Assembly (NCBI GenBank): GCA_947632435.1 | Contig: CANRPC010000001.1 | Span: 75,986-139,985 of the forward strand | From: an uncultured Bacilli bacterium | Lineage (GTDB): Bacteria > Bacillota_I > Bacilli_A > RFN20 > CAG-449 | DNA length: 64,000 nt | Direction: 5' to 3' | In this document: positions 23,682 to 64,000 of the stretch, one piece after another | Layout: every line of letters begins with the position of its first letter | Numbering within the stretch: the first letter of the stretch is position 1 | Translations under genes and position numbers: made by a program | Notes under the pieces: model-generated | Database searches by the model: none | Seen by the model: the letters and a program-made list of their open reading frames with translations, nothing else | Told to the model about the DNA's origin: nothing

Positions 23682-24281
23682 ATGAACAAAAAAAAATATT
23701 CTTCATCGATAAAAAAAACACCATTTAAATATACAATATCAAAAAAAATAGCTGGATTAATGTTAAATAAATTAGATAGAAATGAAATTTATAACACATG
23801 TTTTAATTGTAATTATATTGAAATTGATTCTCTTGAAAGAAGAAGAGAAATTACAAATGTTATCTATAATAGGTTGTTAGAACTAGATAATTATTTGCTC
23901 GATTATTTTTATAATGGAGATGTTATAACTTCTAAATTTATTTTAGTATATGCTATAGCAAAATCCGATTCACTTTTTTTTGATTTTTTATTTGAAGTAT
24001 ATCGCGAAGCTTTGTTAGGAAATAAAAATTATATTTCAATTGATGATTTTGAAACATTTTTTTCTTCAAAAAAGGAATGTGATGTTGTTGTTTCAAAATG
24101 GGGAAATTTTACAATTGACCAATTAGCCAAAGGATATAGGAATATTTTAGTTGAATCTGGACTTGGAACTAGAATTAAAAGAAATATAAATGTTGAAAAG
24201 ATAACTATTCATCCAAATATTGAAGAGCATATTCAATTAATTGGAGATAAAAAATTTTTACAAGCATTATTAGGAGTGTAG
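23682..24281 (+). CDS. brxA: BREX type 1 BrxA (DUF1819-like)
   Basis: About 200-aa helical protein, first gene of a six-gene cluster with BREX-1 order and sizes. Start chosen at the internal ATG 23682 (RBS aggggtg), because the ORF-track ATG 23655 sits within the predicted -10 region. Confidence 0.5.
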   Translation: MNKKKYSSSIKKTPFKYTISKKIAGLMLNKLDRNEIYNTCFNCNYIEIDSLERRREITNVIYNRLLELDNYLLDYFYNGDVITSKFILVYAIAKSDSLFFDFLFEVYREALLGNKNYISIDDFETFFSSKKECDVVVSKWGNFTIDQLAKGYRNILVESGLGTRIKRNINVEKITIHPNIEEHIQLIGDKKFLQALLGV

Positions 24282-24286
24282 TAAGT

Positions 24287-24895
24287 GTGAGAAGTATAAA
24301 TGAAAGAAGTTTGAATGAACGTTTTAATGAACTTGAGGATAGAATGCAATCCGTTGAATCATTAACAAGATATGGTACTGCCAACGACATGAAGTTTTAT
24401 ATTTTTGATTATAATCCAAAAGATGAATACGCAGTTAGAAAAGAAATCAAAAAATTAAAAGAACATAATCAAAATATTATTGAATTTGATCTATATGAAA
24501 TGATGCTTGAAATCATTGAGAAACAAGGATATACAGAAGATGTAATTCGAGCAGAAACAGAATATGATAAAGAACATTTGCTATCTGAGATTTTTCAACC
24601 TATTTTATCAGTTGAAGAGTCAAATAATGAGTTTTTAGAAATGTTTAAATTAAGGGCATATGATGATGGATCAAAAATCATTTTGATAACAGGTGTAGGA
24701 AAAGCTTATCCAGTAATTAGAAGTCATACAATACTGAATAATTTACAAAGCATTTTCAGAAAAAATCCTGTTGTCATGATGTATCCAGGAAGATATGAAA
24801 CTAAGCAAAAAATGACTTTACGATTGTTTGATCGATTAGATGATGATAATTATTATAGAGCATTTCCACTAGTTGAAAGGAGAATTAGCAAATGA
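24287..24895 (+). CDS. brxB: BREX type 1 BrxB (DUF1788-like)
   Basis: 202 aa, second gene. Its stop overlaps the brxC start (ATGA). Confidence 0.5.
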   Translation: MRSINERSLNERFNELEDRMQSVESLTRYGTANDMKFYIFDYNPKDEYAVRKEIKKLKEHNQNIIEFDLYEMMLEIIEKQGYTEDVIRAETEYDKEHLLSEIFQPILSVEESNNEFLEMFKLRAYDDGSKIILITGVGKAYPVIRSHTILNNLQSIFRKNPVVMMYPGRYETKQKMTLRLFDRLDDDNYYRAFPLVERRISK

Positions 24896-27800
24896 TTATA
24901 AAAGATTTATTTAAAAAACCTATTGATAGAAGTATTCAAGGCGTAGTAACTATAGGTAATGAAGATGAAGAACAAAAATGGCAAGAATTAGAAGAATATG
25001 TTTGTACAGGAGAAATTACAAAACAATTTAGAATTTTCTTTAGAAAATATCGCGAATCAATTGCTGCTCCTACTGAAAAAATGGCTGCTTGGGTTACTGG
25101 ATTTTTTGGCTCTGGTAAATCACATTTTCTTAAAATATTAGGTTACATTCTTGAAAATGAGATAGTAGCTGGAATGAATGCAGTTGACTATTTCAATGAT
25201 AAAATTCAAGATGAGATGCTGCTTGCTGATATGAAAAAATGTGCTTCAGCAAATAACAAAGTTGTCTTATTTAATATTGATTCAAAAGCAAAATCAGATT
25301 CTAAAAATAAGACTCAGGCTATTATGGATATCATGCTTAGAGCATTTAATGAATCTGTTGGTTATTGTGGTGATAGACCATGGGTTGCGGATCTTGAAAG
25401 AATGCTTGATGAAGAAGGGTTATTAAATGATTTTGTTACTAAATTTGAAAAACTTTCTGGTCGTGATTGGAAAGCAAATCGATCAAAAGCTGCATTAAAT
25501 AAAAAAATCATAATTGATGCTTTAGTAGAAGTTAGAAAAGTTCCAAGAACAGATGCTGAAGATTATATTAATGATCAAATTAATAATTACACAAATTCTA
25601 CAGAGGATTTTGCAAAGATTGTTAACGAATATTGCAAAAAGAATAAAGCAAGAATCATTTTCTTGATGGATGAAGTTGGACAATTCATAGGTGATAATAC
25701 ACAATTAATGTTGAATTTACAGACTTGTGTTGAAGATTTGGGAAAATATTGTAAAGGACAAGCATGGGTTGTTGTTACATCACAACAAGAACTAAAAGCT
25801 ATGATTGATTCTACTAAGGATAAACAACAAGATTTTTCAAAAATTCAAGCAAGATTTGACACTAGAATTTTATTAAGTGGAGCAGAAGCAGGAGAGGTTA
25901 TAAAAAAACGTATTCTTGATAAAAAGGATAATGCAGTTAATTCTTTAAAATCATTATATGATAGCAATGCAAATAAAATTTCTAATTTAATTTTATTTGC
26001 TGGAACTCCTTCATGGAGCGGATATAAAGATGCAGAAGATTTTAAAAATGTATATCCTTTTGTGCCATATCAATTTGAATTACTTCAAAAGGTTTTCACT
26101 GCAATTAGAGAACATGGTATGTCTGAAGGTAAACATCTTGCACACTCTGAACGTTCTCTTTTAAGTGCATTTCAAGAATCTGCCAAAAAATATAGTGATG
26201 CTGAAACAAATATATTAATTCCATTTGATAGTTTTTATTCTACAATTGAACAATTTATTGATTGGGATATAAAAAATGTTTTTACTTCAGCAGAAAATAA
26301 GGCAACGCTTAGTGATTTTGATTTAAGAGTTCTAAAAATTTTATTTATGATTCTTCATGTAAAAGAAATGCCTGCAACAATAGATAGAATTGCAACATTG
26401 ATGATTGAATCGTTAAATGAAGATAAAGTTTTATTAAAAAAAGACATTGCTGAGTCATTAAAGGTTTTAGAAAAAGAAACATTAATTCAAAAAAATGGTG
26501 ATGAATTTGATTTTTTAACTAATGAAGAACAAGATGTTAATAAACAAATTAATCATGTCGATTATAATGAAGGCGAAGTTAAAAGAAATATTCTAGACAT
26601 TGTTTATGATAAAGTTCTTGAGCTAACTACTAAATTTCGTTATAAAAATAGATATGATTTTTCACTAAATAGATATGTTGATGATGAATTAAAAGGCAGT
26701 CATGGACAAGATAATATCTCTATTAAAATTATGACTAATTTTTCTGGAATTTCTGATCCAACCATGTTTGCGTCAGAATCTACAAGGAGCAATGCTCTAG
26801 TTGTTGATTTAACTGAAGGTAATTTTATTGAAGAATTAACTAGAGCAAACAAAATTTCACTTTATAAAAGAAACAATAGCAGTTCTTTATCTGTTTCAAT
26901 GACTGAAATTATGGCAAAGAAATCAGCTGAGCTTTCAGAAAGAGTTAAGAGAGCTGAAGAAATTATTAAAGAGTCACTTAGATCAGCACCAATTTATTTT
27001 AATGGAAATATAATTGATATAAAACAAAAAGATGGTAAAGATAGGTTAAATGATGCCTTAAATCAAGTTGTTGAACAAGAATATTATAAATTAGGATATG
27101 TGTCTTATTTTTATCAAGACCAAAAATCAATTTTAGAAGTTTTAAATTCAAATAATAATGGATTGTTTGGGAATGACATTGCAGGAGATGCAAATGAAAA
27201 AGCATTTCAAGAAATTTTTGATAAAATAAAAAATGATAAAAATATTGCTAAAAGAACAAATGTAAAAGAATTATTGGATCATTTTTCTAAAAAACCATAT
27301 GGTTGGAGAGATTTAGATGTTCTTGGTATGGTAGCTAAATTATTTAAATTAGAATTACTTCAAATATTTATTCATGATGTTCTTGTTGATGACAAAAATT
27401 ATAGTTTTAAAAATGATTTTGTAAAGAAAAATAGTCTTGATACAATGGTTGTTAGAGTTCAAGAAAAAATAGATGAATCAGTATTAATTCAAGTAAAACA
27501 AATTATGAATAAAATTTATTCATTATCACTTCAAATAAATGAATCTGAAATGAAAAAAGAGGTATTAAATTTCTTTACTAAAAAAAGAGATTTCTTAAGT
27601 AATTTAAAGATTAAATATGGTAATGAATTTGCAGGAGCTTCTTGCGTTCCTAGCATTTATAAAGATATTGATGAAATTGTTAGAACAAATGATTCTGCAA
27701 CTATTTTTAATGAAATTATTTTAAGAAAATATTCACTTGAAGAAAAATCTGAGATTTTAGAACAATTAGAAAGTTTTTACAAAGATGGCAGTAATCAACA

Positions 27801-28452
27801 AAAGGTATATAATGATGCTTTAGAAATTGTTAAATGGTATTACCAAAACAACAATTTATTGAATGCTTTAAATAAATTAGATGACGTAATTTTTAGTATA
27901 GATGAAATTCTTAAAATGGATGTTCCTTTTACTAAAATTAATCTATTAAGTGATTTAGTATTCAAAGCAGGAGAAGTAAAAGAACAAATATTAGAAGAAA
28001 AATATAATGAAGTAATTAATTCATTAAATGATGATCAAAAAAATATTAAAAATGAATTTGTTGGTGTTACAAGTTCTGATTTATCTGAATTTAAGAAAAA
28101 CAAAATAAAAGATAAATATGATAAGATTGAACATATGTATCAATCATGGTATAACACTTTATCAAATAAAACTCAAAATCTTGATTCTTATGTTGTATCA
28201 AGTCAAAACACAGTGGAAGATTTCAAAAAATTTATTAGTTCTATAATGGCTGAGGTGGAATCTATTCCTTATGGTGATAATTCTAACCAACCAGTAAAAG
28301 AAATAAAAAGAAAAAATGTTAGAGTCATTGATTGTGTTCCTATTGCTAAGAAAAGAATAAAGTCAAAAGATGATATTGATAGTGTTATTCAATCAATTAG
28401 AAAAGCATTAGAAGAAGCACTTCAAAATAACGATGAAATAACAATTAATTAA
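24892..28452 (+). CDS. brxC: BREX BrxC/PglY ATPase
   Basis: 1186 aa. N-terminal IQGVVTIGNEDEE...WVTGFFGSGKSHFLKILGYILEN matches the BrxC/PglY P-loop region (GxFGSGKSHF). A long helical C-terminus. Confidence 0.85.
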   Translation: MIIKDLFKKPIDRSIQGVVTIGNEDEEQKWQELEEYVCTGEITKQFRIFFRKYRESIAAPTEKMAAWVTGFFGSGKSHFLKILGYILENEIVAGMNAVDYFNDKIQDEMLLADMKKCASANNKVVLFNIDSKAKSDSKNKTQAIMDIMLRAFNESVGYCGDRPWVADLERMLDEEGLLNDFVTKFEKLSGRDWKANRSKAALNKKIIIDALVEVRKVPRTDAEDYINDQINNYTNSTEDFAKIVNEYCKKNKARIIFLMDEVGQFIGDNTQLMLNLQTCVEDLGKYCKGQAWVVVTSQQELKAMIDSTKDKQQDFSKIQARFDTRILLSGAEAGEVIKKRILDKKDNAVNSLKSLYDSNANKISNLILFAGTPSWSGYKDAEDFKNVYPFVPYQFELLQKVFTAIREHGMSEGKHLAHSERSLLSAFQESAKKYSDAETNILIPFDSFYSTIEQFIDWDIKNVFTSAENKATLSDFDLRVLKILFMILHVKEMPATIDRIATLMIESLNEDKVLLKKDIAESLKVLEKETLIQKNGDEFDFLTNEEQDVNKQINHVDYNEGEVKRNILDIVYDKVLELTTKFRYKNRYDFSLNRYVDDELKGSHGQDNISIKIMTNFSGISDPTMFASESTRSNALVVDLTEGNFIEELTRANKISLYKRNNSSSLSVSMTEIMAKKSAELSERVKRAEEIIKESLRSAPIYFNGNIIDIKQKDGKDRLNDALNQVVEQEYYKLGYVSYFYQDQKSILEVLNSNNNGLFGNDIAGDANEKAFQEIFDKIKNDKNIAKRTNVKELLDHFSKKPYGWRDLDVLGMVAKLFKLELLQIFIHDVLVDDKNYSFKNDFVKKNSLDTMVVRVQEKIDESVLIQVKQIMNKIYSLSLQINESEMKKEVLNFFTKKRDFLSNLKIKYGNEFAGASCVPSIYKDIDEIVRTNDSATIFNEIILRKYSLEEKSEILEQLESFYKDGSNQQKVYNDALEIVKWYYQNNNLLNALNKLDDVIFSIDEILKMDVPFTKINLLSDLVFKAGEVKEQILEEKYNEVINSLNDDQKNIKNEFVGVTSSDLSEFKKNKIKDKYDKIEHMYQSWYNTLSNKTQNLDSYVVSSQNTVEDFKKFISSIMAEVESIPYGDNSNQPVKEIKRKNVRVIDCVPIAKKRIKSKDDIDSVIQSIRKALEEALQNNDEITIN

Positions 28453-28463
28453 GAGGTGAACTT

Positions 28464-31045
28464 ATGGATAAAAGGGCATTACAAACTTATGCTGAATGGG
28501 CTAAGAAAAACTTAGAAAATCAAATTGAAGTTTCACTAAAAACATTAGGAATTAATAGCGATAATGATATTAAACAAGCTAGAAAAGTTGGTGAATATAC
28601 GATTATAGATGGAGATTCTAATTCCTATTCAGCAGATTTATATGATAAGCGAAATGATATTACAAATTTGATTAAATCAGATGGTTACAAAAATGTTATT
28701 GAAGAGTTTGCGTATACTTGGTTTAACAGAATAATAGCACTTAGATTTATGGAAGTTCATGACTTTTTACCTCACGGATTTAGAGTGCTTTCTTCTAGAG
28801 ATGGTAGTTTTGAGCCTGAAATTCTTAAAAATCTTAATTATGTTAAAGATGATTTAAAGTTAGATATGAGTATTATAGCTAGTCTTAATTCTCAAGGTAA
28901 AATAGAAGAAGTTTATCGATATGTTTTATTTAAACAATGTAATGCATTATCTAAGATTTTACCTATGCTTTTCAGTAATGAAAGTGCATATTTAGAATTA
29001 CTTCTTCCAAAAGCATTATTAAAAGGTGACACAATAATTACTAAACTTTTAGAAATAGATGAAAATAGCTTTTTAGAAGATGTAGAAGTAATTGGTTGGT
29101 TATATCAATTTTATGTAGCAAATGATAGACAAGAATTTAGAGATGCCAAAGTAGTCACAAAAGATTTAATTCCAACATTAACACAAGTATTTACTCCAGA
29201 TTGGATTGTTCGATACATGACAGAAAATTCACTTGGTAGATTGTGGCTAGAAAGTTATCCTAATTCTTCAATAAAATCAGAAATGAAATATTATGTTGAA
29301 GATGCAAAACAAGAAGAAGATATTCAAAAGAAAATTAATGAAATTAAATACAAAAATGTAAATCCCGAAGACATTAAAGTTATTGAACCATGTTGTGGCT
29401 CGGGACATATTTTAGTGTATATTTTTGATTTATTATTTAAAATGTATGAAGAAAAGGGTTATCAACAAAGAGAAATTCCTTCTTTGATATTATCTAAGAA
29501 CATATATGGATTAGAAATTGATAAACGTGCTACACAGCTTGCCACATTTTCATTAATTATGAAAGCAAGAAAATTAAATAATAGGTTTTTTAATGAAAAA
29601 TATTATGTTGAACCAAATGTAATTGAAATTTATGATTCAAGATTCTTTTTGGACTTTGATTATAAATCACAAATGGTAAGTTTAAAATTATTTAGTGACG
29701 AAGAAATAAAAGCAACAACTGAACTTATTGAAACATTTAGGTATGCCAAAACAATTGGATCACTTTTAATTATGCCTAAGATTAATATTTCATTAGTTGA
29801 AAATGTAATTGAAAAATTAACTAATAAAGCTGTTAATACTATATTTAATAATAAATTTATTGCTAATGGTCCTAAATTTCTTTCAAAATTAATTAATCAA
29901 TATAAAATAATGGCTAATAAATATGATGTTATGATCACAAACCCACCATATCTTGGAATATCAAAAATGGAAGCAAATCCTAAACGATATTTATCAGCAA
30001 AATATCCTAATAGTAAATCAGATATGTTTGCAATGTTTATGGAAACACCATTTGTTAAGAAAAATGGATTTAGAGCTATGGTAAATCCTGATTCTTGGAT
30101 GTTTCTTGTTAGTTATGAAGAATTAAGAAAGCAAATTATATTTAATGAAAGCATAGTGAATATGATTCATTTAGGGCTTGGAGCTTTTGATGCAACTGTT
30201 CAAACGACTTCATTTGTTATACGTAACTCTGCAATTGCTGGAAATGGTGTTTATTTCCGCCTTGTTGATGAAAAAGATAAAGAAAAAGCATTTTTGTCGG
30301 GGGGGGGGGTATAACTGCTAAATTAATTACCTTTTATAAAATACCAGGTTGCATATTATCATATTGGATTTCTAAAAAAACCATTGATAACTTCTTAAAT
30401 AAAAAACTTGGCGATGTAATAGTTACACGTGAAGGAATGGCAACAGCAGATAATGATAAATTTTTAAGACTTTGGAGCGAAGTTGCATTCACTAAAATTT
30501 ATTTTTGTGCAACTGATTATATTAATGCATTATATACGGGATATAAGTGGTTTCCATATAATAAGGGCGGTGTATTTAGAAAATGGTATGGCAATAATGA
30601 ATATATTGTAAATTGGCAAAATGATGGATTTGATATAAAAAATAACAAAGATGAAAAAAGCAAAAAAATTAGAAGTCACAATTATAATGGCAAATATGGT
30701 TTTTTGGAAGGAATTACATGGAGTTCGCTTTCAACGGGGTCCTTTTCATTAAGATATTCTCCTAAAGGATTTTTGTTTGATTCGAAGGGAGCAAAAGGCT
30801 TTCCAAATAATTCGAACGAAATTTGGTTTATTATGGGGTTATTAAATTCTCAAGTTGCAAAACATTATCTATCGTTTATAGCTCCAACAATTGACTATAA
30901 AGTTGGTGATATTATTCAAATACCATTTATAAAAAACAAAGAAAATAAGGTTAACGAATACGTTAAAAAAAATATTCAAGTTGTAAAGAAAGATTGGGAT
31001 TCTTTTGAAACTTCATGGGATTTCAAAAAACACCCATTAATATAA
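28464..31045 (+). CDS. pglX: BREX PglX N6-adenine DNA methyltransferase (N-terminal domain, MTase core and first target-recognition module). It is interrupted by a frameshift in a G11 tract, giving ORFs 28464..30314 and 30311..31045.
   Basis: N-terminal YTWFNRIIALRFMEV (the conserved PglX start). SAM-binding EPCCGSGHIL and motif IV NPPY (MITNPPYLG). The protein continues without a stop in the -1 frame after the G-run (GGG ITAKLITFYKIPGCILSYWIS...). 9 or 12 G would restore the frame. Confidence 0.75.
30299..30309 (+). repeat. Poly-G homopolymeric tract (G11) within pglX. It is a candidate phase-variation switch, currently OFF.
   Basis: Eleven consecutive G located precisely at the pglX frameshift. 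G-tract phase variation of pglX is established for the Streptomyces Pgl system and other BREX loci. Confidence 0.8.
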
Positions 31046-31086
31046 GGAGCGCATTCCTCCTAAATGAATGCAAAGGAGGAAAAAAT

Positions 31087-31818
31087 ATGGAATCAAAACA
31101 TTTAAGATATGAGATAGCATCTACAAAATTTAATATGATACCTGGAAATCCTATTGCATATTGGATAAGTAATGCGTTTAGAAATATTTTTTCAATGGGA
31201 ATTCCTATCGAAAAAATAGGAGACGTTAGGACAGGGATATCAACTGGTAAAAATGATTTATATCTTCGTTTATGGTATGAGATATCTTGTAGTTCTATTA
31301 ATTTTTATCAAACTAATATTAATAAGATTAACTTAAATGAAAAAAAATACATTCCTTATAATAAAGGTGGTGATGCTAGAAAATGGTATGGCAATAATGA
31401 ATATGTAGTTAATTGGTCACAGCATGATAAATTTCATCGTAGCAGACCTAATTTTTCAGATATTTATTTAAAAAAAGGATTAACTTGGTCATTTGTTACT
31501 TCTGGCATGTTTTCATCAAGATATTATCCAAATGGTTTTTTATGGGATGTTGCTGGATCTCCTTGCGTTTTTAATGATGATAGCAGTTTATATTATATTT
31601 TAGGATTTCTATCTACTAAAATTGCTTCTAATATTTTAAAGTTAATTAATCCAACCCTTAATTGTCAAGTAATTGATATACAAAGAGTTCCTATAATTGA
31701 TACTGATAATGATAAGGATAAAGTTATAAATATCTCTATTATGTCAGTTAAAAAATCGAAAGATGATTGGGATTCTTTTGAAACTAGTTGGGATTTCAAA
31801 AAACATCCATTAATTTAA
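31087..31818 (+). CDS. Second, divergent copy of the PglX target-recognition module, encoded as a stand-alone ORF with a strong SD
   Basis: 244 aa from ATG 31087 (SD aaaggagg at 31072-31079). It is paralogous to residues after the G-tract in pglX: both contain AYWIS, LRLW, YNKGG..RKWYGNNEY.VNW, and end with the identical DWDSFETSWDFKKHPLI. The central regions are diverged. Confidence 0.6.
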   Translation: MESKHLRYEIASTKFNMIPGNPIAYWISNAFRNIFSMGIPIEKIGDVRTGISTGKNDLYLRLWYEISCSSINFYQTNINKINLNEKKYIPYNKGGDARKWYGNNEYVVNWSQHDKFHRSRPNFSDIYLKKGLTWSFVTSGMFSSRYYPNGFLWDVAGSPCVFNDDSSLYYILGFLSTKIASNILKLINPTLNCQVIDIQRVPIIDTDNDKDKVINISIMSVKKSKDDWDSFETSWDFKKHPLI

Positions 31819-31835
31819 AAGAATAGGAGTCATAT

Positions 31836-32894
31836 ATGGCAAACAAGAACAATAACAAAGAAGTCACAATACGAAGTTCTGCTGCAGAATATTTAACTTA
31901 TGTGGCATCGGTAGGAGAAGAAACGCAAAATATAGAGGTAAGGTATGAAGATGAAAATATATGGTTAACGCAAAAAATGTTGGGATTACTTTTTAATGTT
32001 GAACCCCATACGATTAATTATCATATTAAAAAAATATTTGCAGATAGTGAATTAAGTGAAGATTCAGTTACTCGAAATTTTCGAATAACTGCCAGTGATG
32101 GAAAAACTTATGAAACAAAGCATTATAATCTTCAAATGATTATCGCAATTGGTTTTAAAGTTAACTCTGAAAGAGCCGTTCAATTTCGTAAATGGGTAAA
32201 CCAAATTGCATCCGAATATACAATTAAAGGATGGGTTATGGATGATGAGCGATTGATTAGAGGAACTTATTTAACTGATAAGTATTTTGAAGAACAATTG
32301 GAAAGGGTTCGTGAAATACGTGCCTCTGAAAGAAAGTTTTACCAAAAAATAACCGATTTATATGCTACTGCAATTGATTACGATAAGGAAGCTTTAGCAA
32401 CAAGAAGATTTTATGCCACAGTTCAAAACAAAATGCATTATGCTATTCATGGCCATACAGCAGCAGAATTAATTGTAGAACGGGCAGATTCAAAAAAAGA
32501 ACATATGGGACTTACTACATGGAAAGATAGTCCTGATGGAAAGATTCAAAAATCAGATGTAATTATTGCTAAGAATTACTTAACTGAATTTGAACTTAGT
32601 CAACTAAATAGAATGGTAAATGCGTATTTGGATTTTGCCGAAAATATGGCTCAAAGAAAAATTCCACTTACAATGGAAGATTGGGAAAACCGGCTTAATT
32701 CATTTATTGAAATGTTTGAATATGGGCTTTTAAAAGATGCGGGCAAAGTTTCAAACGAAATTGCAAGACTTCACGCAGAAACAGAGTTTGAAAAATATAG
32801 AGTAATTCAAGATGCATTGTTTATGTCCGATTTTGATAAGTATGTGCTTGAATTGGAAGAACATATTAAAAAAAATAAAAACAATAAGAAGTAA
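31836..32894 (+). CDS. rhuM: RhuM-family (virulence-protein RhuM / Fic-DOC-associated) protein embedded within the pglX region
   Basis: YNLQMIIAIGFKVNSERAVQFRKWVNQIASEYTIKGWVMDDERL is highly characteristic of RhuM-family proteins, which are commonly inserted between hsdM and hsdS of type I R-M loci. RBS aggag 7 nt upstream. Confidence 0.75.
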   Translation: MANKNNNKEVTIRSSAAEYLTYVASVGEETQNIEVRYEDENIWLTQKMLGLLFNVEPHTINYHIKKIFADSELSEDSVTRNFRITASDGKTYETKHYNLQMIIAIGFKVNSERAVQFRKWVNQIASEYTIKGWVMDDERLIRGTYLTDKYFEEQLERVREIRASERKFYQKITDLYATAIDYDKEALATRRFYATVQNKMHYAIHGHTAAELIVERADSKKEHMGLTTWKDSPDGKIQKSDVIIAKNYLTEFELSQLNRMVNAYLDFAENMAQRKIPLTMEDWENRLNSFIEMFEYGLLKDAGKVSNEIARLHAETEFEKYRVIQDALFMSDFDKYVLELEEHIKKNKNNKK

Positions 32895-32906
32895 AGGAAC
32901 AATTTT

Positions 32907-33842
32907 ATGGGAAGATTAATAGCTGATAAATTTAAGCAATGGGAAGAAGAGTGTCAAGAAAGATTTAATACTTTAAAAGCCAACGAAGAAGAATTAAACA
33001 GAATTTTCATTGAAATATATGGACTTCAAGATGAACTAACACCTGAAGTTGCAGATAAAGATGTTACTGTTAGATTAGCAGATAGAGAAAGAGATATAAA
33101 GTCATTGATCTCCTATATGATTGGTTTAATTATGGGAAGATATTCCTTAGATGTTGAAGGACTAGCTTATGCTGGAGGCAAGTGGGATTCAAGTAAATAT
33201 ATCACATATAAACCTGATGATGAAGGAATTGTCCCTATATATTCTAAAATTGGTATGTCAGATAGTTTAACTGCAAGAATTATTGAACTTATTAAACATA
33301 TTTATGGTGAGGATACATATCGAGCAAATATAGACTTTATTGCTGAAACTCTAGGAAAAAAACAAAATGAATCATCTGAGGAAACATTAAACAGATATTT
33401 ATGTGATGATTTTTATAATGATCATTTAAAAATATATCAAAAAAGACCTATTTATTGGATGTTTTCAAGTGGTAAAAATAATGGATTTAAATGTCTTATT
33501 TATCTTCATAGATATAGTGAAGATACTCTTGCTATTATTAACTCTAAATATTTTTTAAATGAATCTGCAAGATTAAAAAGAGAAATTGAAGATCTTTTTA
33601 TTCAACTTGAAACCGCAGAAGGAAAAGATAAAATTCGTCTTGAAAAAGAAAAAAAATTAGTGGAAGCAAAATATAAAGAAATGATTGAATATGGACAAGT
33701 ATTAGACCATATGGCAAATCAATATATTCAATTGGATTTAGATGATGGTGTTAAAGTAAATTATGCAAAATTTCAAGGCATTGAAATAATAAATGATAGT
33801 GGTGCAAAAGTTAAAAAAGACTTATTAGTTCCAATAAAGTAA
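32907..33842 (+). CDS. pglX: C-terminal domain of PglX, encoded as a separate 311-aa ORF
   Basis: NRIFIEIYGLQDEL, KRPIYWMFSSGK and GFKCLIYLHRY resemble the conserved C-terminal region of BREX PglX / type IIG-like MTases. This is from memory and not searchable here. Size sum: 616 + ~245 + 311 = ~1170 aa, the normal PglX length. Confidence 0.55.
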   Translation: MGRLIADKFKQWEEECQERFNTLKANEEELNRIFIEIYGLQDELTPEVADKDVTVRLADRERDIKSLISYMIGLIMGRYSLDVEGLAYAGGKWDSSKYITYKPDDEGIVPIYSKIGMSDSLTARIIELIKHIYGEDTYRANIDFIAETLGKKQNESSEETLNRYLCDDFYNDHLKIYQKRPIYWMFSSGKNNGFKCLIYLHRYSEDTLAIINSKYFLNESARLKREIEDLFIQLETAEGKDKIRLEKEKKLVEAKYKEMIEYGQVLDHMANQYIQLDLDDGVKVNYAKFQGIEIINDSGAKVKKDLLVPIK

Positions 33843-33856
33843 GGAGGTCAAACTAA

Positions 33857-36397
33857 ATGGCAAATATAGATTATCAAGAAGCCAAAAAAGAAATAGATAA
33901 GATATTTGAAAATAATATTGGTGAAAGAAAAATTGTTTTTTGGTATGATGCTCCAAAAAATTTTGAAGAAGATATAAAATCAGATAATTTTGAAAAATGT
34001 AAGCTTCTTATTTGTGATAGAAATGAATTTGAAATCAAAAAAACAATTGAACACGATGATTTAGAATCTAATTTTTTGATTTATATCCCAAACGAAAAAC
34101 CAATTGATACTGAAAATTGGTTATTGGATATTCTTATGTATAGTGAAGAATATTATGCTGATACAGTTGCTTTAATAATGAGACGATTCAATCTTTCTAA
34201 TAATGATTTAAGAAAAGTCATTGAAAGTCATTCAAAGTTTTTTGATAGTGAAATTAGAAGCAAGAAACTTTCATCTTATATAAAAATTAATGATAATATG
34301 ACAAGAGATCAATTTAAGTTAGCTATGATGGCGGTTTTAACTAAATCAGATCTATGTTCTATAGAATCAATATTAGAAGAACTTGTATTTGATGATCATG
34401 AACATACAAAATACAATGAATTAAAGAAATTTAAATTTGAAAATTATCTATGGGACCAAATTTGTGAATATTTCAATTATGATGGCGATTTAAAAATTGA
34501 AATGCTTATTAAAAGATTTATATTTACTACTTTTTTAGAACAAATAGAAAATGATGATAAAGAATATTTCACGAAATTGCCATCATATTATGATCAATTT
34601 GTTATTAAGGAAAAAGGTGTAAATGATGCTAGATATTTTATAAATAAAATTAAAAATGATAAAAGGTATGAAAAACTTCAAAATAATCTTGCAGATGAAA
34701 TGAAAATTGAAGGTCTTATTTCTACAAAAGATTTAATGAGTATTCAAAGTGCGGATGTTTTTGAATGCTTTGACAATTTTATTATTGATAAGATTGCTAA
34801 TAGTTTACAAAGTGGTAGTTTAGATTATGAAACTTTTCAAAGAATTATTTATAATCGTATAAATTCAATTTGGTATGAAAAATATAAAAATAAATACAAT
34901 TTTTTATTATCAGTAATTAAATTTTTAAAGGAAATTGAAAAACCAATTAGTCTTGATTCTACAGTTAATGATTATATAATGCAATATACTAAGGAATACT
35001 ATAAAATTGACATGTTTTATAGACATGTTTGTGCAAGCTTCAAAAAAATTGATTCTACAGAAGTTTTTGAAAATTTGATTAATAGAATTGAATCTTTATA
35101 TCAAAATAACTTTTTAGATATTTTAGGAAAAAATTATAATGGTGCATTAAGTAGTCAAAAAGATTGGAATTTTATTGGTGTTAATATGACAAATGATTTC
35201 TATCAGTATATTCAAAAAAATCCTGCAAAAAAAATGTTTGTCATTATATCTGATGCTTTACGATATGAGATAGGATATGAAATATATGAACAAGTAAAAG
35301 CAGATCCAATATTAAAAGGTGGAGCAGAAATTAAATATGCAATTAGTCCATTACCTTCTGAAACTCGTCAAGGAATGGCATCTTTATTACCACACAAAAC
35401 GATTACATATAAAAATAAAGCTTTTTATGTAGATAATGATATGCCTACAAATTCTATTGATGCTAGAAATAATATTTTACAGGCAAAAAATAAAGGATAT
35501 TCAGCAATTAAATTTGATACGATTAATTCATTAACACAAAGTAAATTACGCCAATATATGCAAGATAAAACTTTAGTTTATATCTATCATGATGTTATCG
35601 ATAATGCAGGAGAAAATAAAGAAAATGCAGTATTTGATGTAGTTCAATCTGCAATTGATGACATTATTACTTTAGTAAAAAAGTTATATAATAATTTACA
35701 AATTTCAAATTTCTATATTACGGCAGATCATGGTTTTTTGTATAGAAGAAACGAAATTCATGAATCTAGTAAATATAGTAATATTGTTTCTTTAAAACCA
35801 ACAGAAGTTGCTAAACGTTACGTATTAACTGATGATGAAACATTATCAATTCCGTATACTACTGAATTTAATTTAATTAATTTATCAAATGGTAATATGA
35901 AAGCTATTACTCCAAATGGATATGATTTATTTAAAACACAAGGAGGAGGAATCCAATATGTTCATGGTGGTGCTTCCTTACAGGAAACAATTGTGCCTAT
36001 AATACATATTAGCGAATTAAGATCGAGTAAGTTAAAAGATAGTATTGGACCTGTTGGTGTAAGATTAAAGAGTATAACACGTAAAATAACAAATAGAAGT
36101 TTTACTTTAGAATTTGAACAATATGAAAAAGTAGAAGATAAAAAACAAGCTATAACATGTGAAACATTTATAATTGACGAATTTGGTAATAAAGTTACGA
36201 ATGAATATAAATTTGTAGCTAATTCAAATAGTGATGATTCTTCTACAAGAATTTCTAGAATTAGATTTACACTTAAAAATATTGAATTTGATAGGAACAG
36301 ACCTTATTTTATGATATTAAAAAATATAGATAAACCAGATGAATACATTGAGAAGGAACTTTTCACAATTGATATTATTGGATTTAAAATGTTTTAA
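33857..36397 (+). CDS. pglZ: BREX PglZ (alkaline-phosphatase-superfamily)
   Basis: 846 aa. N-terminal RKIVFWYDAPKNFEED. Central PglZ-domain motif MFVIISDALRYEIGYE. Confidence 0.85.
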   Translation: MANIDYQEAKKEIDKIFENNIGERKIVFWYDAPKNFEEDIKSDNFEKCKLLICDRNEFEIKKTIEHDDLESNFLIYIPNEKPIDTENWLLDILMYSEEYYADTVALIMRRFNLSNNDLRKVIESHSKFFDSEIRSKKLSSYIKINDNMTRDQFKLAMMAVLTKSDLCSIESILEELVFDDHEHTKYNELKKFKFENYLWDQICEYFNYDGDLKIEMLIKRFIFTTFLEQIENDDKEYFTKLPSYYDQFVIKEKGVNDARYFINKIKNDKRYEKLQNNLADEMKIEGLISTKDLMSIQSADVFECFDNFIIDKIANSLQSGSLDYETFQRIIYNRINSIWYEKYKNKYNFLLSVIKFLKEIEKPISLDSTVNDYIMQYTKEYYKIDMFYRHVCASFKKIDSTEVFENLINRIESLYQNNFLDILGKNYNGALSSQKDWNFIGVNMTNDFYQYIQKNPAKKMFVIISDALRYEIGYEIYEQVKADPILKGGAEIKYAISPLPSETRQGMASLLPHKTITYKNKAFYVDNDMPTNSIDARNNILQAKNKGYSAIKFDTINSLTQSKLRQYMQDKTLVYIYHDVIDNAGENKENAVFDVVQSAIDDIITLVKKLYNNLQISNFYITADHGFLYRRNEIHESSKYSNIVSLKPTEVAKRYVLTDDETLSIPYTTEFNLINLSNGNMKAITPNGYDLFKTQGGGIQYVHGGASLQETIVPIIHISELRSSKLKDSIGPVGVRLKSITRKITNRSFTLEFEQYEKVEDKKQAITCETFIIDEFGNKVTNEYKFVANSNSDDSSTRISRIRFTLKNIEFDRNRPYFMILKNIDKPDEYIEKELFTIDIIGFKMF

Positions 36398-36411
36398 GGG
36401 GGAAAACAAAT

Positions 36412-58275: not shown

Positions 58276-58597
58276 ATGTTCCTCCCAAAAAACATATATG
58301 TTTTTACTAACTTATCTTAGCACAAGATTTTTTCTTGTTATAGGAAAATGATTAAATTTCAGAAATTGTTTGTAAAACTAAAATATAAATATTGATTTTT
58401 AATAGTAAAATATTTTATTTCTTTTGCAAAACAATAATTTATATGTATTTTATTTTATAAATAAATGACATTGTTTCGACATTTTTTTATAAAATATTTG
58501 ACCTCAATTTAATTTAATTTTAAGATAAAAATGTAGACATAAAACTATTTAGTTTTAAGAAAATACCTAATTTCTATTTTAATCGTGGGAGGAAATT

Positions 58598-60565
58598 ATG
58601 AGTGAATTGAGTTTTGAGTATAAATGTATAAATTTTTTGCAAAAAAATAATGAACAAGCTCTAAAATTTTATTTGTATCAAGAATATGGAAAAAATGGAT
58701 TTATTAGTATCCGTGTTTATATTCCGAAAGATAAGCAAGTTGATTTAGAATATGTTGATTTATATTTTAATGAAAATGGTGTTAATTTTCCTGATTTTAT
58801 TAATAAAGCACCAACTAAACAATTTAAAGCAATTGAAGTTAAAAATGAAAATTCAATTCAAATTAATGTTTCTTCTAAAATGGAACTTAATGGTGTAGGA
58901 GTAATTATTTTTAAATACAAAAATGACAATAAAAGAATTCAAGAAAGAAATATTTATCGATTTGCAATTAATTATTGTAGGAAAGAAATTATTTCTTATG
59001 TAATTAATGAACGTCGAAAAAGTATTAAAATTCAAGTGCTGTTTCCTCGAATTCTTAAAGAAATCGATTTAATAGTTGCACGTAAAGAAGGATCAAAACC
59101 TCTTTTGATTAGTGACATGAAAAATACTTTAAATTCAGATAAAGATTTAATTAGATTAATTCCTAGTGGCAGAGAATTTGATATAAAAGAAAAGGTTATA
59201 AAAAAGGGAATTAAGCCAGATATTGAAGACTATAGATTAACATTTAAAGATCCAAAGGATAATAAGTTTTATTTATTAGTTGATGAAAGTAAAAAAACAT
59301 TAGAAGATATTAAATTAAAAACTTCTAAGCAAAAGAAAAAACCAATTTATAGATGTATTTATTGCGGTAATATTTTAAATAAAAAGTTGTTTGCTAAAAA
59401 AGGTACTTTTTCTTGTGATAATAAAAGAATAGATAATCTTGCGCAAAATGAATATAATCTTGATATTTTATGTACAGAAAATACGTGGATACAAGAGAAC
59501 AATAGAAGTTTAGAAAATTGCTTATTAATGTTACCTAAAAATATATTAAAAAAGCCTTGTATGAATATTGTTGTCGCTGGTCATCAAAAATCAGGAAAAA
59601 CAATATATCTTGCTTCATTGATTGATATGTCTATTGATTCAGTATCTGAAAATCAATATAATTGCTCGGCACCTACTTTGGACATGATTGTTAAAACGTT
59701 TGATAAATCAAAAAATAATAGTGTTAAAGAAATTGTTAATAAAACATTTTATGATAAAAAATTTGAGAAAAAATTTACAGATAATTCAATCTATACTGAT
59801 ATGTCAAGAGGAAGATATAATATTTCTGTAAATAGTCAAATAGAATCGCAAACTCTTGCAGATAAATCAGAACTATTATCATGGAATCCTATTCATTTTG
59901 AAATGGGAAATTTGGGTTTTATTAATTTATATGATGTTCCTGGTGAAATATTTTCACCATCAAGTGTGGAAAAAAATCGTGCTTTCGATATTGCTGACGG
60001 TATTATGTTAATTGTTGATGGTGATGTTCGTAACTCAACAAGTAGCATTAGGCAGGTTAATCCATTTATTGTTGCCACCAATAGTTTAAAGCAAATTGCA
60101 AAAATAGGAACAGATAGTGCTAAAAATTTTTCTGACATTCCTCTAGCTATTGTGTTTACTAAATTAGATTTAAAATTGAAAGAATATACTCCTAAAATTG
60201 ATGCTGCTTCAATAAATGAATGTTTTGATGAAAATGATAATATTGCAAGAGAAGATATTATTTCATTACTTCCTAAAAATGGAATTTATAAAGGTAGTGA
60301 ATTAGAAAAGCATATCGAATTATCTAGCTATGAATTAGAACATTATTTAAAATCTGCAAATGATGAAACTAAAAAAGCATATAAAGATTTATTACATGAT
60401 TATAATAACGTTAAATTTTTTGCAATTAGTGCTTTAGGTAATGACAATTTCTTACAAAATATAAATAATCAATCTAATCCTACAGTATTATGCAAACCAA
60501 AGCGAATAAGGATTGAGTTACCTATTATTTGGTTAATGTATCAAAATAAATTAATTAAGAGGTAG
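58598..60565 (+). CDS. Uncharacterised 655-aa protein with a central P-loop GTPase-like domain and an upstream Cys-containing segment
   Basis: G1 VVAGHQKSGKT, G3 YDVPGE, G4 FTKLD. Preceded by a CIYCGN...FSCDNK segment. The N-terminal 300 aa have no match I can recognise. Confidence 0.45.
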   Translation: MSELSFEYKCINFLQKNNEQALKFYLYQEYGKNGFISIRVYIPKDKQVDLEYVDLYFNENGVNFPDFINKAPTKQFKAIEVKNENSIQINVSSKMELNGVGVIIFKYKNDNKRIQERNIYRFAINYCRKEIISYVINERRKSIKIQVLFPRILKEIDLIVARKEGSKPLLISDMKNTLNSDKDLIRLIPSGREFDIKEKVIKKGIKPDIEDYRLTFKDPKDNKFYLLVDESKKTLEDIKLKTSKQKKKPIYRCIYCGNILNKKLFAKKGTFSCDNKRIDNLAQNEYNLDILCTENTWIQENNRSLENCLLMLPKNILKKPCMNIVVAGHQKSGKTIYLASLIDMSIDSVSENQYNCSAPTLDMIVKTFDKSKNNSVKEIVNKTFYDKKFEKKFTDNSIYTDMSRGRYNISVNSQIESQTLADKSELLSWNPIHFEMGNLGFINLYDVPGEIFSPSSVEKNRAFDIADGIMLIVDGDVRNSTSSIRQVNPFIVATNSLKQIAKIGTDSAKNFSDIPLAIVFTKLDLKLKEYTPKIDAASINECFDENDNIAREDIISLLPKNGIYKGSELEKHIELSSYELEHYLKSANDETKKAYKDLLHDYNNVKFFAISALGNDNFLQNINNQSNPTVLCKPKRIRIELPIIWLMYQNKLIKR

Positions 60566-60568
60566 AAT

Positions 60569-63382
60569 ATGAGCACAAAAGAAACGTATATTTATGAAAC
60601 ATTATATGCAAATGTTCACAATGAAACATCGGGGCATGATGAAATTTATAAAACCAGCAAAAATTTAATAAAAGGGAATCCTGATTATGATTTTGTAATG
60701 AAGGAATGTGCTAAGTTTTTAGGTGTATATGAACTTCATGAATCTAAAGGTTTCATTTTAAATAAGTTAAATAATGATGAAAAACTTGATTTTGATTCAA
60801 TTTATCAAGCATATTCATTTATTGATGGAAAAAGTATTATTAAAACTGCTAAATTAAGAAAAAGTTTAGAAAATTTCCAAATTAGAGGAAGAAAAGAAAT
60901 AGTTAGAAGTTTAGTTTTTAATGACTTAAAATGCTATAATGTTGATTTAATTGATAATGAATATTTAATTGATAATCTAGATATTGACTTTAATATTGTT
61001 GAAGTAGAAGACCAAAAAAAAGTCCAAGAAATTATTCCATTAGAAAATGAAAAAAATGTAATTAATAATTTAGATGAAGAACAATTTTCTTTTACTAATT
61101 TTAATGATATAAACATTGAAGAATTTTTGGCAAATAAAAAGCAAATTGTTAATTTTTTTAATGCATTTTTAAACGCTAAAAAAAATGGCAAAAAATTAGT
61201 GGTACTATATGAAAAAGATGAATTTTTAAATGTTAAATTATATTTAAAAAATACTTTAAAACTCTTTCCTGTTTCTTTGGCTAATAAAATTTGGTTTACT
61301 ACTGGAATTAGCAGTGATGAATTAAGAAATCCAAATTATAATATTCCTTATGATATTTGCATGATTCCATCAATACACGAATACGATTTAATTCACTTTC
61401 AAAAAAATGTAAATAATGTTGTTATAAAAGTTAGTAACAATTCTATTAATGGAACATTTGATTTTGAAAAAAATGATGTTGTAAAATTTCTTATTAATGA
61501 TTTATCTTCTAGTAATTTAAAAAGATTTATAGAATTTAAAAATGATGCATCATTTGATGATAATTCAACATTTTTAGATGGAATTCATTATTTAGAATTA
61601 ATTGTTAATAGTTTAGTTAATATTCAAGATTATTTTTCAACTGAAAAAAAATTAAATTTGATTTTTGATTCATTTAGAATGATTTGTAATAATCCTTTAC
61701 TTGATAGTAATGAAAAACTTGATTGGCTTATATATAGTAATGTTTTTTTGGCATTTAGAAATGTTTTACTTGAAGTAGAAAATAATTTGAATTTAAAAGA
61801 TAGTGTCATTAAGTGTTTTAATTATTTTTATTTAATTTATTGTAAATTAGGAAAAAAAGAAGAATTATTTACAAAAATTTATGATTATATTTTTGTAAAA
61901 ATTAATTTGCTAAACACAGATTATAGAGATAATGATAAAATATCATTTTATGTAGAAATTTTATCGGCATTTTTTAAAAAATGTAATTGGGATAATAATG
62001 TTGATTTTATAAATGATTTGCTTTTTAATATTTTTATTAAAAATAAAGAAGTGTTCTTAACGTTTTTAAAGATATATTTATCGAAGAAACAAGATATAAT
62101 TCAAAATGCTTTAGCTTTATTAAAAAAATTACTTCAAATTAGAAAAAATTTACCAACATATGATCCATTAGAAGATTTAATTGTTGATTTAATAAATTTA
62201 TGTGATAGAAATAATTACAACGAAATATTACAAGAAATATTTAATATTAATGATAGCGATGATATTTGTAGAATTATACATAGTATCATTGAAAGAATTG
62301 ATGAAAATAAATATTTATCATTTGAAAATGTTTTAAAAGATAGGATTAAGATTTATTCAAAGAATAATTTAAAAGAATATAAATTGTTTTTATTGTATTT
62401 TATAGAAGGAACAATTGATAGCGAAAGATTAGCAATTATTGTTAAATGGATTTTTGTAACATATTTAGAAATTAATAAAATTGATAACTATGATGATATT
62501 GTACATATTAAACAAAAAGAGAATGAATTATTTTCTGAATTTACTAAAAATTCTAGTTTTTTAAATAAATTTAGAAAAGTTATTTGCAAACTATATTTTG
62601 AAGATTTGATAAAAGATGATTCCATAAATAAAAAAATCAAAGAAGATGATATTGATGAAAAAACATATGAAGAAATTTTTACTTATATTGATGAAATTGT
62701 TAAATATTCATCTTATTATAATGAATTAAATACTGCATTTAAATGTAAAAAACAAAGTTATATTGATTACTTAAATAATAAAAATAAAGAAAATTCATTA
62801 AAATTATTTAGATGCGAATTTGTAGTACGTAGACTTTTAATTTTAAAAAATAAATCAATAGTTAAAATATTAAAAAAGTGTCATACTCCAAGTGAAATAA
62901 ATGATAAATTCAAAGAAGAAAAAATTAAAATTAGAGGCAATAAAACTGACAATAAAAAATTTAATGAAATTTGTGGAAATTTTGCAATGCAAATTTTACA
63001 AACTGATGAAACTAAAAAGGCTAATCAATTTATAAATTTAATTGAAAAAACACATGAAAATAATATTGCCAATAAAAAAATAAAGTTATTTGACAAATTC
63101 AGTGGTGGTGTACAAATGATTTTTGTAACGCTATTTACTCTTTTAATAAGTTCAGCAATCAATTATTTATTATTTATGACAATATTTCATAAAAGAAATC
63201 TTATTTCACTTTTGATAGTAAGTATCTATTTGATTTTAGTTTCTGTAATTATATATTGGTCAAACTTTAAAGAACGAAGATTGAAAAATGCTGTTATTAG
63301 ATCTTCAACTTATATGTTATGTATTATTTTAGTAACATATTTAATTTATATCGGTGCAGTATTATTACTTGAATTATTTTAA
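60569..63382 (+). CDS. Uncharacterised 937-aa helical protein with three C-terminal TM helices
   Basis: The start is 4 nt after the GTPase stop (operonic). No recognisable catalytic motif. The last ~90 aa are hydrophobic. Confidence 0.35.
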   Translation: MSTKETYIYETLYANVHNETSGHDEIYKTSKNLIKGNPDYDFVMKECAKFLGVYELHESKGFILNKLNNDEKLDFDSIYQAYSFIDGKSIIKTAKLRKSLENFQIRGRKEIVRSLVFNDLKCYNVDLIDNEYLIDNLDIDFNIVEVEDQKKVQEIIPLENEKNVINNLDEEQFSFTNFNDINIEEFLANKKQIVNFFNAFLNAKKNGKKLVVLYEKDEFLNVKLYLKNTLKLFPVSLANKIWFTTGISSDELRNPNYNIPYDICMIPSIHEYDLIHFQKNVNNVVIKVSNNSINGTFDFEKNDVVKFLINDLSSSNLKRFIEFKNDASFDDNSTFLDGIHYLELIVNSLVNIQDYFSTEKKLNLIFDSFRMICNNPLLDSNEKLDWLIYSNVFLAFRNVLLEVENNLNLKDSVIKCFNYFYLIYCKLGKKEELFTKIYDYIFVKINLLNTDYRDNDKISFYVEILSAFFKKCNWDNNVDFINDLLFNIFIKNKEVFLTFLKIYLSKKQDIIQNALALLKKLLQIRKNLPTYDPLEDLIVDLINLCDRNNYNEILQEIFNINDSDDICRIIHSIIERIDENKYLSFENVLKDRIKIYSKNNLKEYKLFLLYFIEGTIDSERLAIIVKWIFVTYLEINKIDNYDDIVHIKQKENELFSEFTKNSSFLNKFRKVICKLYFEDLIKDDSINKKIKEDDIDEKTYEEIFTYIDEIVKYSSYYNELNTAFKCKKQSYIDYLNNKNKENSLKLFRCEFVVRRLLILKNKSIVKILKKCHTPSEINDKFKEEKIKIRGNKTDNKKFNEICGNFAMQILQTDETKKANQFINLIEKTHENNIANKKIKLFDKFSGGVQMIFVTLFTLLISSAINYLLFMTIFHKRNLISLLIVSIYLILVSVIIYWSNFKERRLKNAVIRSSTYMLCIILVTYLIYIGAVLLLELF

Positions 63383-63398
63383 AAAAGGAGTTTAAGGT

Positions 63399-64000
63399 AT
63401 GAGAACAAAAAAGAATAAATTATTTTTTGCATTTTTAATTATATCGATGTTAATTGGAATTGCTTTTTCATGTCTTTCAAGATATTATTTTGGAAAAACT
63501 AATAGCAAAATTAATGATGAAATAAATGAATACATTTATTCTGATACTATTTATAGTATTGAAGATTTTTTGAAAAAACAAAGCAAAAATAATCCTTGGA
63601 TAAAAAATTCTTGTAAAAAAGAAGTATATGCTTATAGTGTTGATAATAAGGAAATAATGAATAATGATCTAATAGAATTTCAAGATAATGGCAATTCAAT
63701 TAAAATGAATGGTGTTTTTAATGGTTATATTAAATACATTAATACATTAGATAATACGTGTGTGGTTAAATATGAATTAAAAAGTGTTTTTGAATCAGAT
63801 GATACTTTAGACATAATAAACTATACAAATGAAGGTTTTTTATTAGATGGAATTTTAACCAAGAAGGAAATTAAAGAAGATATTAAATATTTAAATATTC
63901 CTCAAAAAGAATCAATAAATTGTAAAGATTTAAATAAATTTGCAGCACTTAATTATATTTTTCTTGAAGATGTTAGCAATTTAAATAATTTAAATATTGA
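63399..64000 (+). CDS. Hypothetical membrane-anchored protein (3'-truncated by the window)
   Basis: RBS aaaaggag. N-terminal TM helix. The ORF runs to the window end. Confidence 0.3.
   Translation, partial: MRTKKNKLFFAFLIISMLIGIAFSCLSRYYFGKTNSKINDEINEYIYSDTIYSIEDFLKKQSKNNPWIKNSCKKEVYAYSVDNKEIMNNDLIEFQDNGNSIKMNGVFNGYIKYINTLDNTCVVKYELKSVFESDDTLDIINYTNEGFLLDGILTKKEIKEDIKYLNIPQKESINCKDLNKFAALNYIFLEDVSNLNNLNI

Follow-up and report, generated by a model that had tools for sequence, protein, structure and literature searches.

A three-gene GTPase operon from an uncultured Bacilli bacterium, a candidate divergent member of the DO-GTPase/GAP1 systems

Organization of the operon

Here we describe an operon of three genes, coding for a GTPase, a membrane-anchored partner protein and a further membrane protein, that lies at the end of a 64,000-nucleotide stretch of DNA from an uncultured Bacilli bacterium (GenBank assembly GCA_947632435.1, contig CANRPC010000001.1, forward-strand positions 75,986 to 139,985; hereafter the window). 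Its genes, the first two as given in a list of the open reading frames (ORFs), and the region preceding them are as follows, with positions counted from the first letter of the window:

58276-58597, plus strand: AT-rich intergenic region of 322 nucleotides (nt), 5' of gene 1 and divergent from pfkA
58598-60565, plus strand: gene 1, 655 amino acids (aa), ATG start, a DO-GTPase2-like GTPase
60569-63382, plus strand: gene 2, 937 aa, ATG start, a GAP1-like protein with three C-terminal transmembrane (TM) helices
63399-64000, plus strand: gene 3, of which the first 200 aa fall within the window; the ORF crosses the window end

An earlier reading of this DNA from its letters alone (the original prediction) had described these three ORFs, with gene 2 starting 4 nt after the stop of gene 1, and all three are confirmed here: the gap between the first two genes is 3 nt, with gene 2 beginning at the fourth base past the gene 1 stop codon, and the ribosome-binding site of gene 2 (AAGAGG) overlaps that codon. 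Gene 3 starts 16 nt past the stop of gene 2, preceded by AAAGGAG, and gene 1 has a ribosome-binding site of its own (GGGAGG, 58587-58592). A sigma-70-like sequence (TTGACC-17-TAAGAT, 58498-58526) upstream of gene 1 is a consensus match only, and such matches are no more numerous in 58276-58597 than in shuffled sequence. With a GC content of about 22%, one stop per 11 codons or so would be expected; for frames that stay open over 655 and 937 codons the probability calculated from composition is below about 1e-28, which excludes chance, and gene 1 has 33 homologues besides. All three genes are real. The gene spacing, together with a hydropathy scan, also bears out the predicted arrangement of a GTPase tightly coupled to a membrane-anchored partner and followed by a further membrane protein.

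Gene 1 codes for a Ras-like GTPase of the DO-GTPase2 clade

The product of gene 1 is a multidomain protein with the following parts:

58598-59287, plus strand: two consecutive beta-sandwich domains (aa 1-230), from the secondary structure of the AlphaFold2 (AF2) model
59345-59482, plus strand: zinc ribbon (aa 250-295) with C253, C256, C273 and C292
59555-60562, plus strand: small, C-terminal Ras-like G domain (aa 320-655)
59579-59602, 59933-59947 and 60158-60169, plus strand: P-loop, Walker B motif (DVPGE) and TKLD motif of the G domain

The original prediction had recognized no family motif in any of the three proteins. For gene 1 this view has to be revised: it matches the Pfam DO-GTPase2 family (PF19993) with 27.1 bits (E=4.1e-6). 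The match only just clears the gathering score of 27.0 and spans profile positions 91-191 only; however, the same model is matched by 26 of 29 gene 1 family members at E<=0.01 (best 1.1e-8). The predicted G1, G3 and G4 motifs are present as GHQKSGKT (aa 328-335), DVPGE (aa 446-450) and TKLD (aa 521-524), in the form typical of a TRAFAC-class P-loop GTPase. In an alignment of 29 homologues, G328, S332-G333-K334, D446, P448-G449-E450, K522 and D524 are invariant, with the Walker B glutamate (D446-V-P-G-E450) found in 29 of 29 sequences, while T335 and T521 are conserved in at least 90%; the window protein keeps every residue that is invariant across the family, in line with purifying selection on this copy. 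The alignment also reveals a conserved S611-A-L (aa 611-613) and a C-terminal RxELPxxWLM motif. The Cys-containing N-terminal part that had been pointed out earlier corresponds to a zinc ribbon, in which C253 and C256 (as CxxC) and C292 are invariant and C273 is conserved in at least 90% of the same 29 sequences; Pfam Zn_Ribbon_1 is matched by one family member. The AF2 model of gene 1 (pLDDT 80.5, pTM 0.85) places the two beta-sandwiches ahead of this ribbon. A Foldseek search of the PDB and a viral library with the whole model returned only marginal arrestin and tandem FNIII matches to the beta-sandwiches (E of about 1e-3, low TM-scores), and the fold of this region in the model is uncertain.

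A search of 5.8 billion proteins recovered 33 homologues with lengths of 509-730 aa, and 32 of these are full-length (646-730 aa). Apart from the entry of the window protein itself, no homologue exceeds about 42% identity to it. The family profile run against 1.84 billion cluster representatives detected 414 relatives at E<=1e-3, 75 of them at E<=1e-30, and the distant relatives sampled are DO-GTPase2 or DO-GTPase1 proteins by Pfam. In a second tier of relatives, about 1050-1260 aa long (P0065, P0073, P0078, P0079, P0099, P0106 and others), about 500-600 additional residues precede the part shared with gene 1 (second beta-sandwich, zinc ribbon, G domain), which forms the C-terminus. Sequence searches of NCBIfam and the PDB yielded nothing useful for gene 1, and no significant match to gene 1 or gene 2 came from searching the PDB by sequence or by profile. 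Taken together, gene 1 codes for a cytoplasmic Ras-like GTPase of the DO-GTPase2 clade with a Walker B glutamate and a zinc ribbon.

The relationship to other small Ras-like GTPases is distant: identity to MglA/MglB, Rab, Arl and Rag is only 14-19%. Unlike in those Ras-like switches, a Glu rather than a Gln follows the DxxG, about 320 residues (the two beta-sandwiches and the zinc ribbon) precede the G domain in the same chain, and the partner protein has no relationship to MglB/Roadblock, nor to GAPs or GEFs of eukaryotes. The original prediction had named profile hits to a well-characterized housekeeping GTPase family with a known partner as the result that would speak against it; the operon belongs to no such family, and that result did not arise.

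A fast-evolving membrane-anchored partner related to GAP1

The product of gene 2 combines a large cytoplasmic, mostly helical part with the three C-terminal TM helices that had been predicted for it and that the hydropathy scan recovers at approximately aa 846-937. Its two distinguishable segments are:

61124-61306, plus strand: GAP1-M-like segment (aa 186-246; Pfam PF20014)
63098-63379, plus strand: three TM helices (aa 844-937) with a conserved YWxN-x-xxRR loop in which N899 is invariant

Word-indexed homologue searches retrieved only the gene 2 protein itself, whether started from the single sequence or from a 15-member alignment, and a metagenome scan with gene 2 found nothing. Orthologues were therefore gathered by synteny, as the gene downstream of the GTPase gene in 14 related loci (15 sequences with the window). 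These 14 proteins are 884-950 aa long and only 15-22% identical to the window protein; common to the orthologues are an N-terminal RG-x-x-E, a P...F-x-T, a C-terminal FRxDF and the three TM helices with the YWxN..RR loop. The GAP1-M model is matched by 12 of the 15 sequences at the same homologous position (approximately aa 168-286), with the best match, from locus L015 (E=4.9e-6, 27.1 bits), being the sole one to pass the gathering score of 24. Between GAP1-M and the TM helices lies a helical stretch of poor conservation, and a single-sequence structure model of gene 2 was unusable (pLDDT 41, pTM 0.31). No other GAP1 model was matched; judged by its sequence, the protein is therefore a GAP1-M-bearing relative of GAP1 and not a demonstrated full member of that family. 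The GAP1-like gene lies directly downstream of the DO-GTPase gene in the window, and the same order is found in every related locus. Gene 2 specifies a translationally coupled, fast-evolving partner of gene 1 that is anchored in the membrane by its three TM helices.

A large GTPase paired with a membrane-anchored helical partner also brings to mind a dynamin-like membrane-remodelling or a sporulation-specific module, both of which the original prediction had raised. As in bacterial dynamin-like proteins (DynA, BDLP), the GTPase is membrane-associated through a helical partner or region, and the operon lies about 2.4 kb from spoIIGA-sigE-sigG in a spore-forming type of genome. However, unlike in the dynamin-like proteins, the G domain is C-terminal, and there is neither a dynamin-type large G domain nor a helical stalk. 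The spoIIGA/sigE/sigG neighbourhood is kept in none of the more than 20 related loci, 0 of which adjoin sporulation sigma-factor genes, and the hosts include Christensenellaceae and metagenome-assembled genomes (MAGs) of unclassified Bacilli and Clostridia. We therefore regard a module of either kind as highly improbable.

The third gene codes for a Flg_new/Hint protein, probably exposed at the cell surface

The N-terminal TM helix predicted for gene 3 is an anchor at aa 5-31 (63411-63491) in the hydropathy scan. A metagenome contig (L001) that is identical to the window over the stretches compared supplies the whole gene (L001:5389-7977), whose product of 862 aa begins with the TM anchor, continues with Listeria-Bacteroides (Flg_new) repeats (Pfam, E=1.5e-11) and closes with the first part of a Hint domain (E=2.4e-4); no FNIII model was matched. 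A search with the exact proteins returned only contigs of 8 kb or less. The product is a signal-anchored protein, and its beta-rich repeats are expected to lie outside the cell. The gene stops after EHGFFDVESKKYV; this stop lies within the Hint domain and leaves the product about 150 aa shorter than every relative. As only 20 nt of L001 follow the stop, a frameshift and a true truncation are indistinguishable here. A candidate hypervariability of the third gene between the near-identical clusters L015 and L030 proved to be an artefact of the reference set: direct comparison gave 88-97% protein identity. The DNA divergence of their third gene is only modestly higher (93.8% versus 98.2%).

The trio belongs to a nine-gene cluster in most relatives

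Related loci came from scans of species-representative genomes and of metagenomes and from look-ups of the exact proteins. The trio lies, in 16 distinct loci, within one nine-gene, same-strand, tightly packed cluster (recorded at L011:2483-18946 and also in L007, L010, L014, L017-L021, L023, L026-L031 and L036), in which the genes code in order for:

First: ClpB/ClpA-D2-like AAA+ ATPase, about 750 aa (Pfam AAA_2, 1.2e-45; NCBIfam ClpB, 4.8e-67, far below cut-off)
Second: protein of about 180 aa with no assigned family
Third: four-cysteine-motif protein, about 650-700 aa
Fourth: second protein of about 650 aa (L011:7429-9405)
Fifth: radical SAM protein of about 200 aa with an invariant CxxxCxxC (L011:9405-10004)
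Sixth and seventh: the GTPase and then the GAP1-like protein
Eighth: Flg_new/Hint protein, 945-1451 aa
Ninth: transglutaminase-like peptidase, about 334 aa, with invariant C147, H181 and D196

The radical SAM protein is closest to the NrdG glycyl-radical activase (TIGR02491, 1.5e-26, below cut-off), and despite this NrdG/PflA-like component no recognizable glycyl-radical enzyme is found in the cluster. The three invariant residues of the transglutaminase-like protein are consistent with a Cys-His-Asp catalytic triad, as far as sequence can tell. NCBIfam has no models for the cluster-specific proteins. The two proteins of about 650 aa were considered as a second GTPase and rejected (hhalign probability against the GTPase of 1.4% and 0.2%); they were likewise tested and rejected as paralogues of GAP1. 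The one just upstream of the radical SAM gene (in L011) has an invariant C-terminal P..V.L.NG...C.W block.

Locus L005 has the complete cluster except for the last gene. The GTPase, GAP1-like and Flg_new genes are adjacent in all loci with long enough contigs except one: on the short metagenome contig L037 (546-4470) the transglutaminase-like gene comes directly after the GAP1-like one, the Flg_new gene being absent from this place. Fifteen loci come from a scan of a species-representative genome collection of 185,579 species, in which the window's own genome did not turn up. All of these are MAGs, several with gut or rumen sample names, and their hosts belong to Christensenellaceae, Borkfalkia, Erysipelotrichaceae and unclassified Bacilli and Clostridia.

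The components evolve at different rates. Mean pairwise identity is 55% for the radical SAM protein, 53% for the AAA+ ATPase, 46% for the GTPase and 41% for the transglutaminase-like protein; it is 27% for the GAP1-like and 31% for the Flg_new protein, these two and the three proteins of unknown family together ranging over 26-31%. Thus, the GAP1-like and Flg_new components diverge faster than the enzymes of the cluster.

The trio stands alone only in the window, where it is flanked by pfkA and a ROK kinase gene, and in L024, where the flanking genes are glgB- and glgP-like and the third gene is full-length. A neighbor-joining tree of the GTPases assigns these two to separate branches, and in both cases full-cluster lineages are the neighbours; the closest relatives of the window GTPase, L025 and L026, have the larger cluster. 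From this placement the cluster appears to have been reduced to the trio twice, and its persistence alone in two separate lineages points to the trio as a separable core.

The same observations may be read as decay, with the window copy being what is left, no longer functional, of the nine-gene cluster: it is without the five upstream genes, gene 3 ends early within its Hint domain, the closest relatives have the larger cluster, and the GC content of the operon (19-25%) is at the low end of the window's range. Nevertheless, three long ORFs are intact where stops are expected about every 11 codons, all invariant GTPase residues are kept, the gene 2 protein sequence is identical in four independent assemblies, and the independent lineage L024 keeps exactly the same trio with a full-length third gene. 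We accordingly take decay to be quite unlikely, and a lesser rival to the interpretation developed below.

Relationship to the DO-GTPase/GAP1 systems

The DO-GTPase/GAP1 "GTPase-centric" systems were predicted computationally to function in bacterial conflict (Kaur, Iyer, Burroughs, Aravind, eLife 2020, PMC7159879). They have two conserved components, the DO-GTPase and GAP1, and a third one that is either GASH (with GAP1-N1) or an FNIII-repeat protein (with GAP1-N2). In the DO-GTPases the Walker B glutamate is conserved and 60% of the members have one or two N-terminal zinc ribbons; in 38% of the systems a paralogous GTPase accompanies the first. For the GAP1-N2 type, which occurs in Firmicutes and Actinobacteria, the authors point out that GAP1 often has TM helices at its C-terminus and describe a membrane-proximal role, and the published themes of linked genes are tubulin/vWA, HSP70/GrpE/DnaJ and kinase/PP2C/vWA (PMC7159879).

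The operon in the window resembles the GAP1-N2 systems in several respects: a TRAFAC GTPase that has the Walker B glutamate and, N-terminally, a zinc ribbon; immediately downstream, a protein with C-terminal TM helices whose orthologue family bears GAP1-M; a third, fast-evolving, non-enzymatic, TM-bearing beta-repeat protein; and an occurrence in Firmicutes with a membrane-proximal layout. We therefore interpret it as a divergent, reduced and peripheral member of the DO-GTPase/GAP1 GTPase-centric systems, a reading to which we assign a probability of roughly 0.6.

A considerable set of observations weighs against this assignment. At the level of the individual proteins, window gene 2 taken alone matches GAP1-M only with E=0.28 and 11.9 bits, against the gathering score of 24; no GAP1-N1 or GAP1-N2 model was matched at E<=1 in any of the 15 orthologues by single-sequence hmmscan, whose sensitivity is limited, and no GAP1-C model at E<=1 in the same set. 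The third component is made up of Flg_new repeats and Hint, neither FNIII nor GASH as in the published subtypes, and in the window it ends about 150 aa early. There is a single GTPase, with no second paralogous one in the window, and it has one zinc ribbon, not two, located behind the tandem beta-sandwich. As for the linked genes, those of the relatives match none of the three published themes, their content is constant across the 16 loci, with no variable effectors of the kind seen in the published systems, and the window copy is without linked enzymes, having pfkA and the ROK kinase in place of the five upstream cluster genes. Further points are the absence of matches in the defence-system database PADLOC for the GAP1-like and transglutaminase-like proteins of the relatives' cluster, the absence of copies from phage, plasmid or viral-contig collections, flanks that in the related loci consist mostly of metabolic and housekeeping genes, and the fact that a literature search turned up neither experiments nor structures for any DO-GTPase/GAP1 system. 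We also observed that gene 1 has a beta-sandwich pair of its own, where the published GAP1-N2 systems have FNIII repeats as a separate third component.

Several of these points would be accounted for by the main rival, an envelope or surface machine outside of biological conflict. Here the GTPase, much like MglA or FlhF, would regulate position or assembly for placing, processing or cross-linking the Flg_new protein, and the ClpB-like ATPase, radical SAM and transglutaminase-like enzyme of the relatives would be maturation factors. The unvarying gene content of the 16 loci without variable effectors, their housekeeping surroundings, the lack of plasmid, phage or viral copies and of any system-specific PADLOC match, and the retention of the Cys-His-Asp residues in the transglutaminase-like protein all favor such a machine. 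However, the family is rare and patchy (15 loci in 185,579 species), unlike what a core envelope function would show; the GTPase belongs to the DO-GTPase clade and not to the MglA or FlhF families; and the rapid evolution of the GAP1-like and Flg_new proteins would fit an arms race too. We hold this alternative to be unlikely, if less so than decay of the window copy.

Genomic context and the question of defence

The original prediction had also allowed for another defence system. This agrees with what is predicted for the DO-GTPase/GAP1 systems (PMC7159879); on the other hand, genes 1 and 2 of the window have no match in PADLOC-DB v2, and the operon has no defence-island context. Among the components of the relatives, the L011 GTPase has a marginal 28-residue match to PDC-M01B (E=0.0035) and the L011 Flg_new protein a marginal match to AbiEii (E=0.017) in PADLOC, neither of which is system-specific; the similarities there of the AAA_2 domain to DolB and PDC-M37B, and the weak one of the radical SAM protein to pVip, are generic domain similarities. 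A defence role of the operon is possible by analogy with the published prediction, to which these results add no direct support. The constant cluster content, the mostly metabolic flanks and the lack of phage, plasmid or viral copies are real evidence against such a role.

Two sets of defence-like genes are recorded here as observations in their own right. Just downstream of the cluster in L025, on the opposite strand (13204-14935), are a metallophosphatase and a TIR_2-domain gene, the only defence-like neighbours among all loci. In the window itself a BREX type-1-like system with strong Pfam matches occupies 22500-38439, about 20 kb upstream of the operon, from which it is separated by further genes including ftsA, ftsZ, spoIIGA, sigE and sigG. 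Flanking it are five large ORFs without a Pfam match at E<=1e-5, which may be further unknown or defence genes. The features of this region are:

24892-28452: BrxC
28464-30314: PglX-like methylase
33857-36397: PglZ
36412-38439: BrxL
5931-9116: BREX-flanking ORF, 1061 aa
16743-18764: BREX-flanking ORF, 673 aa
20238-22265: BREX-flanking ORF, 675 aa
39111-41786: BREX-flanking ORF, 891 aa
41776-43305: BREX-flanking ORF, 509 aa

A model for the operon and its implications

If the assignment to the DO-GTPase/GAP1 systems is right, the three proteins might work together as follows. The ectodomain of the gene 3 product would contact something at the cell surface, be it the envelope, a phage or a neighbouring cell; the resulting signal would reach the GAP1-like protein inside the membrane, at its TM helices; and the large cytoplasmic part of the GAP1-like protein would set the nucleotide state of the GTPase, which would act as an on/off switch. 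In the full clusters the GTPase could gate enzyme outputs, namely the ClpB-like AAA+ ATPase, the NrdG-like radical SAM protein and the transglutaminase-like thiol peptidase. The window copy is without at least five upstream genes; therefore, it would be a minimal sensor-switch core, or its partners would be encoded elsewhere. The biological role, be it in defence and conflict or in envelope signalling, is something we can only infer.

A bolder extension of this model, which we offer as tentative and clearly less probable than membership as such, would see in the trio a sensor-switch core that acts autonomously, part of a GTPase-centred and membrane-spanning system that gut Firmicutes possess and the DO-GTPase paper leaves undescribed, and hence a new mechanism of envelope-triggered defence or surface signalling. 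In such a system the nine-gene form would join the switch to an unfoldase resembling ClpB, to a radical SAM protein resembling glycyl-radical activases but lacking any recognizable glycyl-radical partner, and to a transglutaminase-like peptidase, with signalling starting from the extracellular Hint-bearing repeat protein. Radical SAM, transglutaminase and ClpB appear in the survey of these systems solely in other contexts (PMC7159879); the linkage of the NrdG-like radical SAM protein and the ClpB-like ATPase to such a GTPase is absent from it and was not found in the other literature searched. If functional, this linkage would point to unfamiliar output chemistry.

The interest of the operon is moderate and comes mainly from the conserved nine-gene cluster that its relatives reveal. 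The DO-GTPase/GAP1 systems are known from one computational survey alone, and the present family, with three genes here and nine in most relatives, offers a compact and well-delimited version on which the prediction of a role in conflict may be tested. As a separable core, the trio would likewise provide a tractable entry to the question of how bacteria connect a Ras-like switch with a partner in the membrane and a sensor outside the cell.

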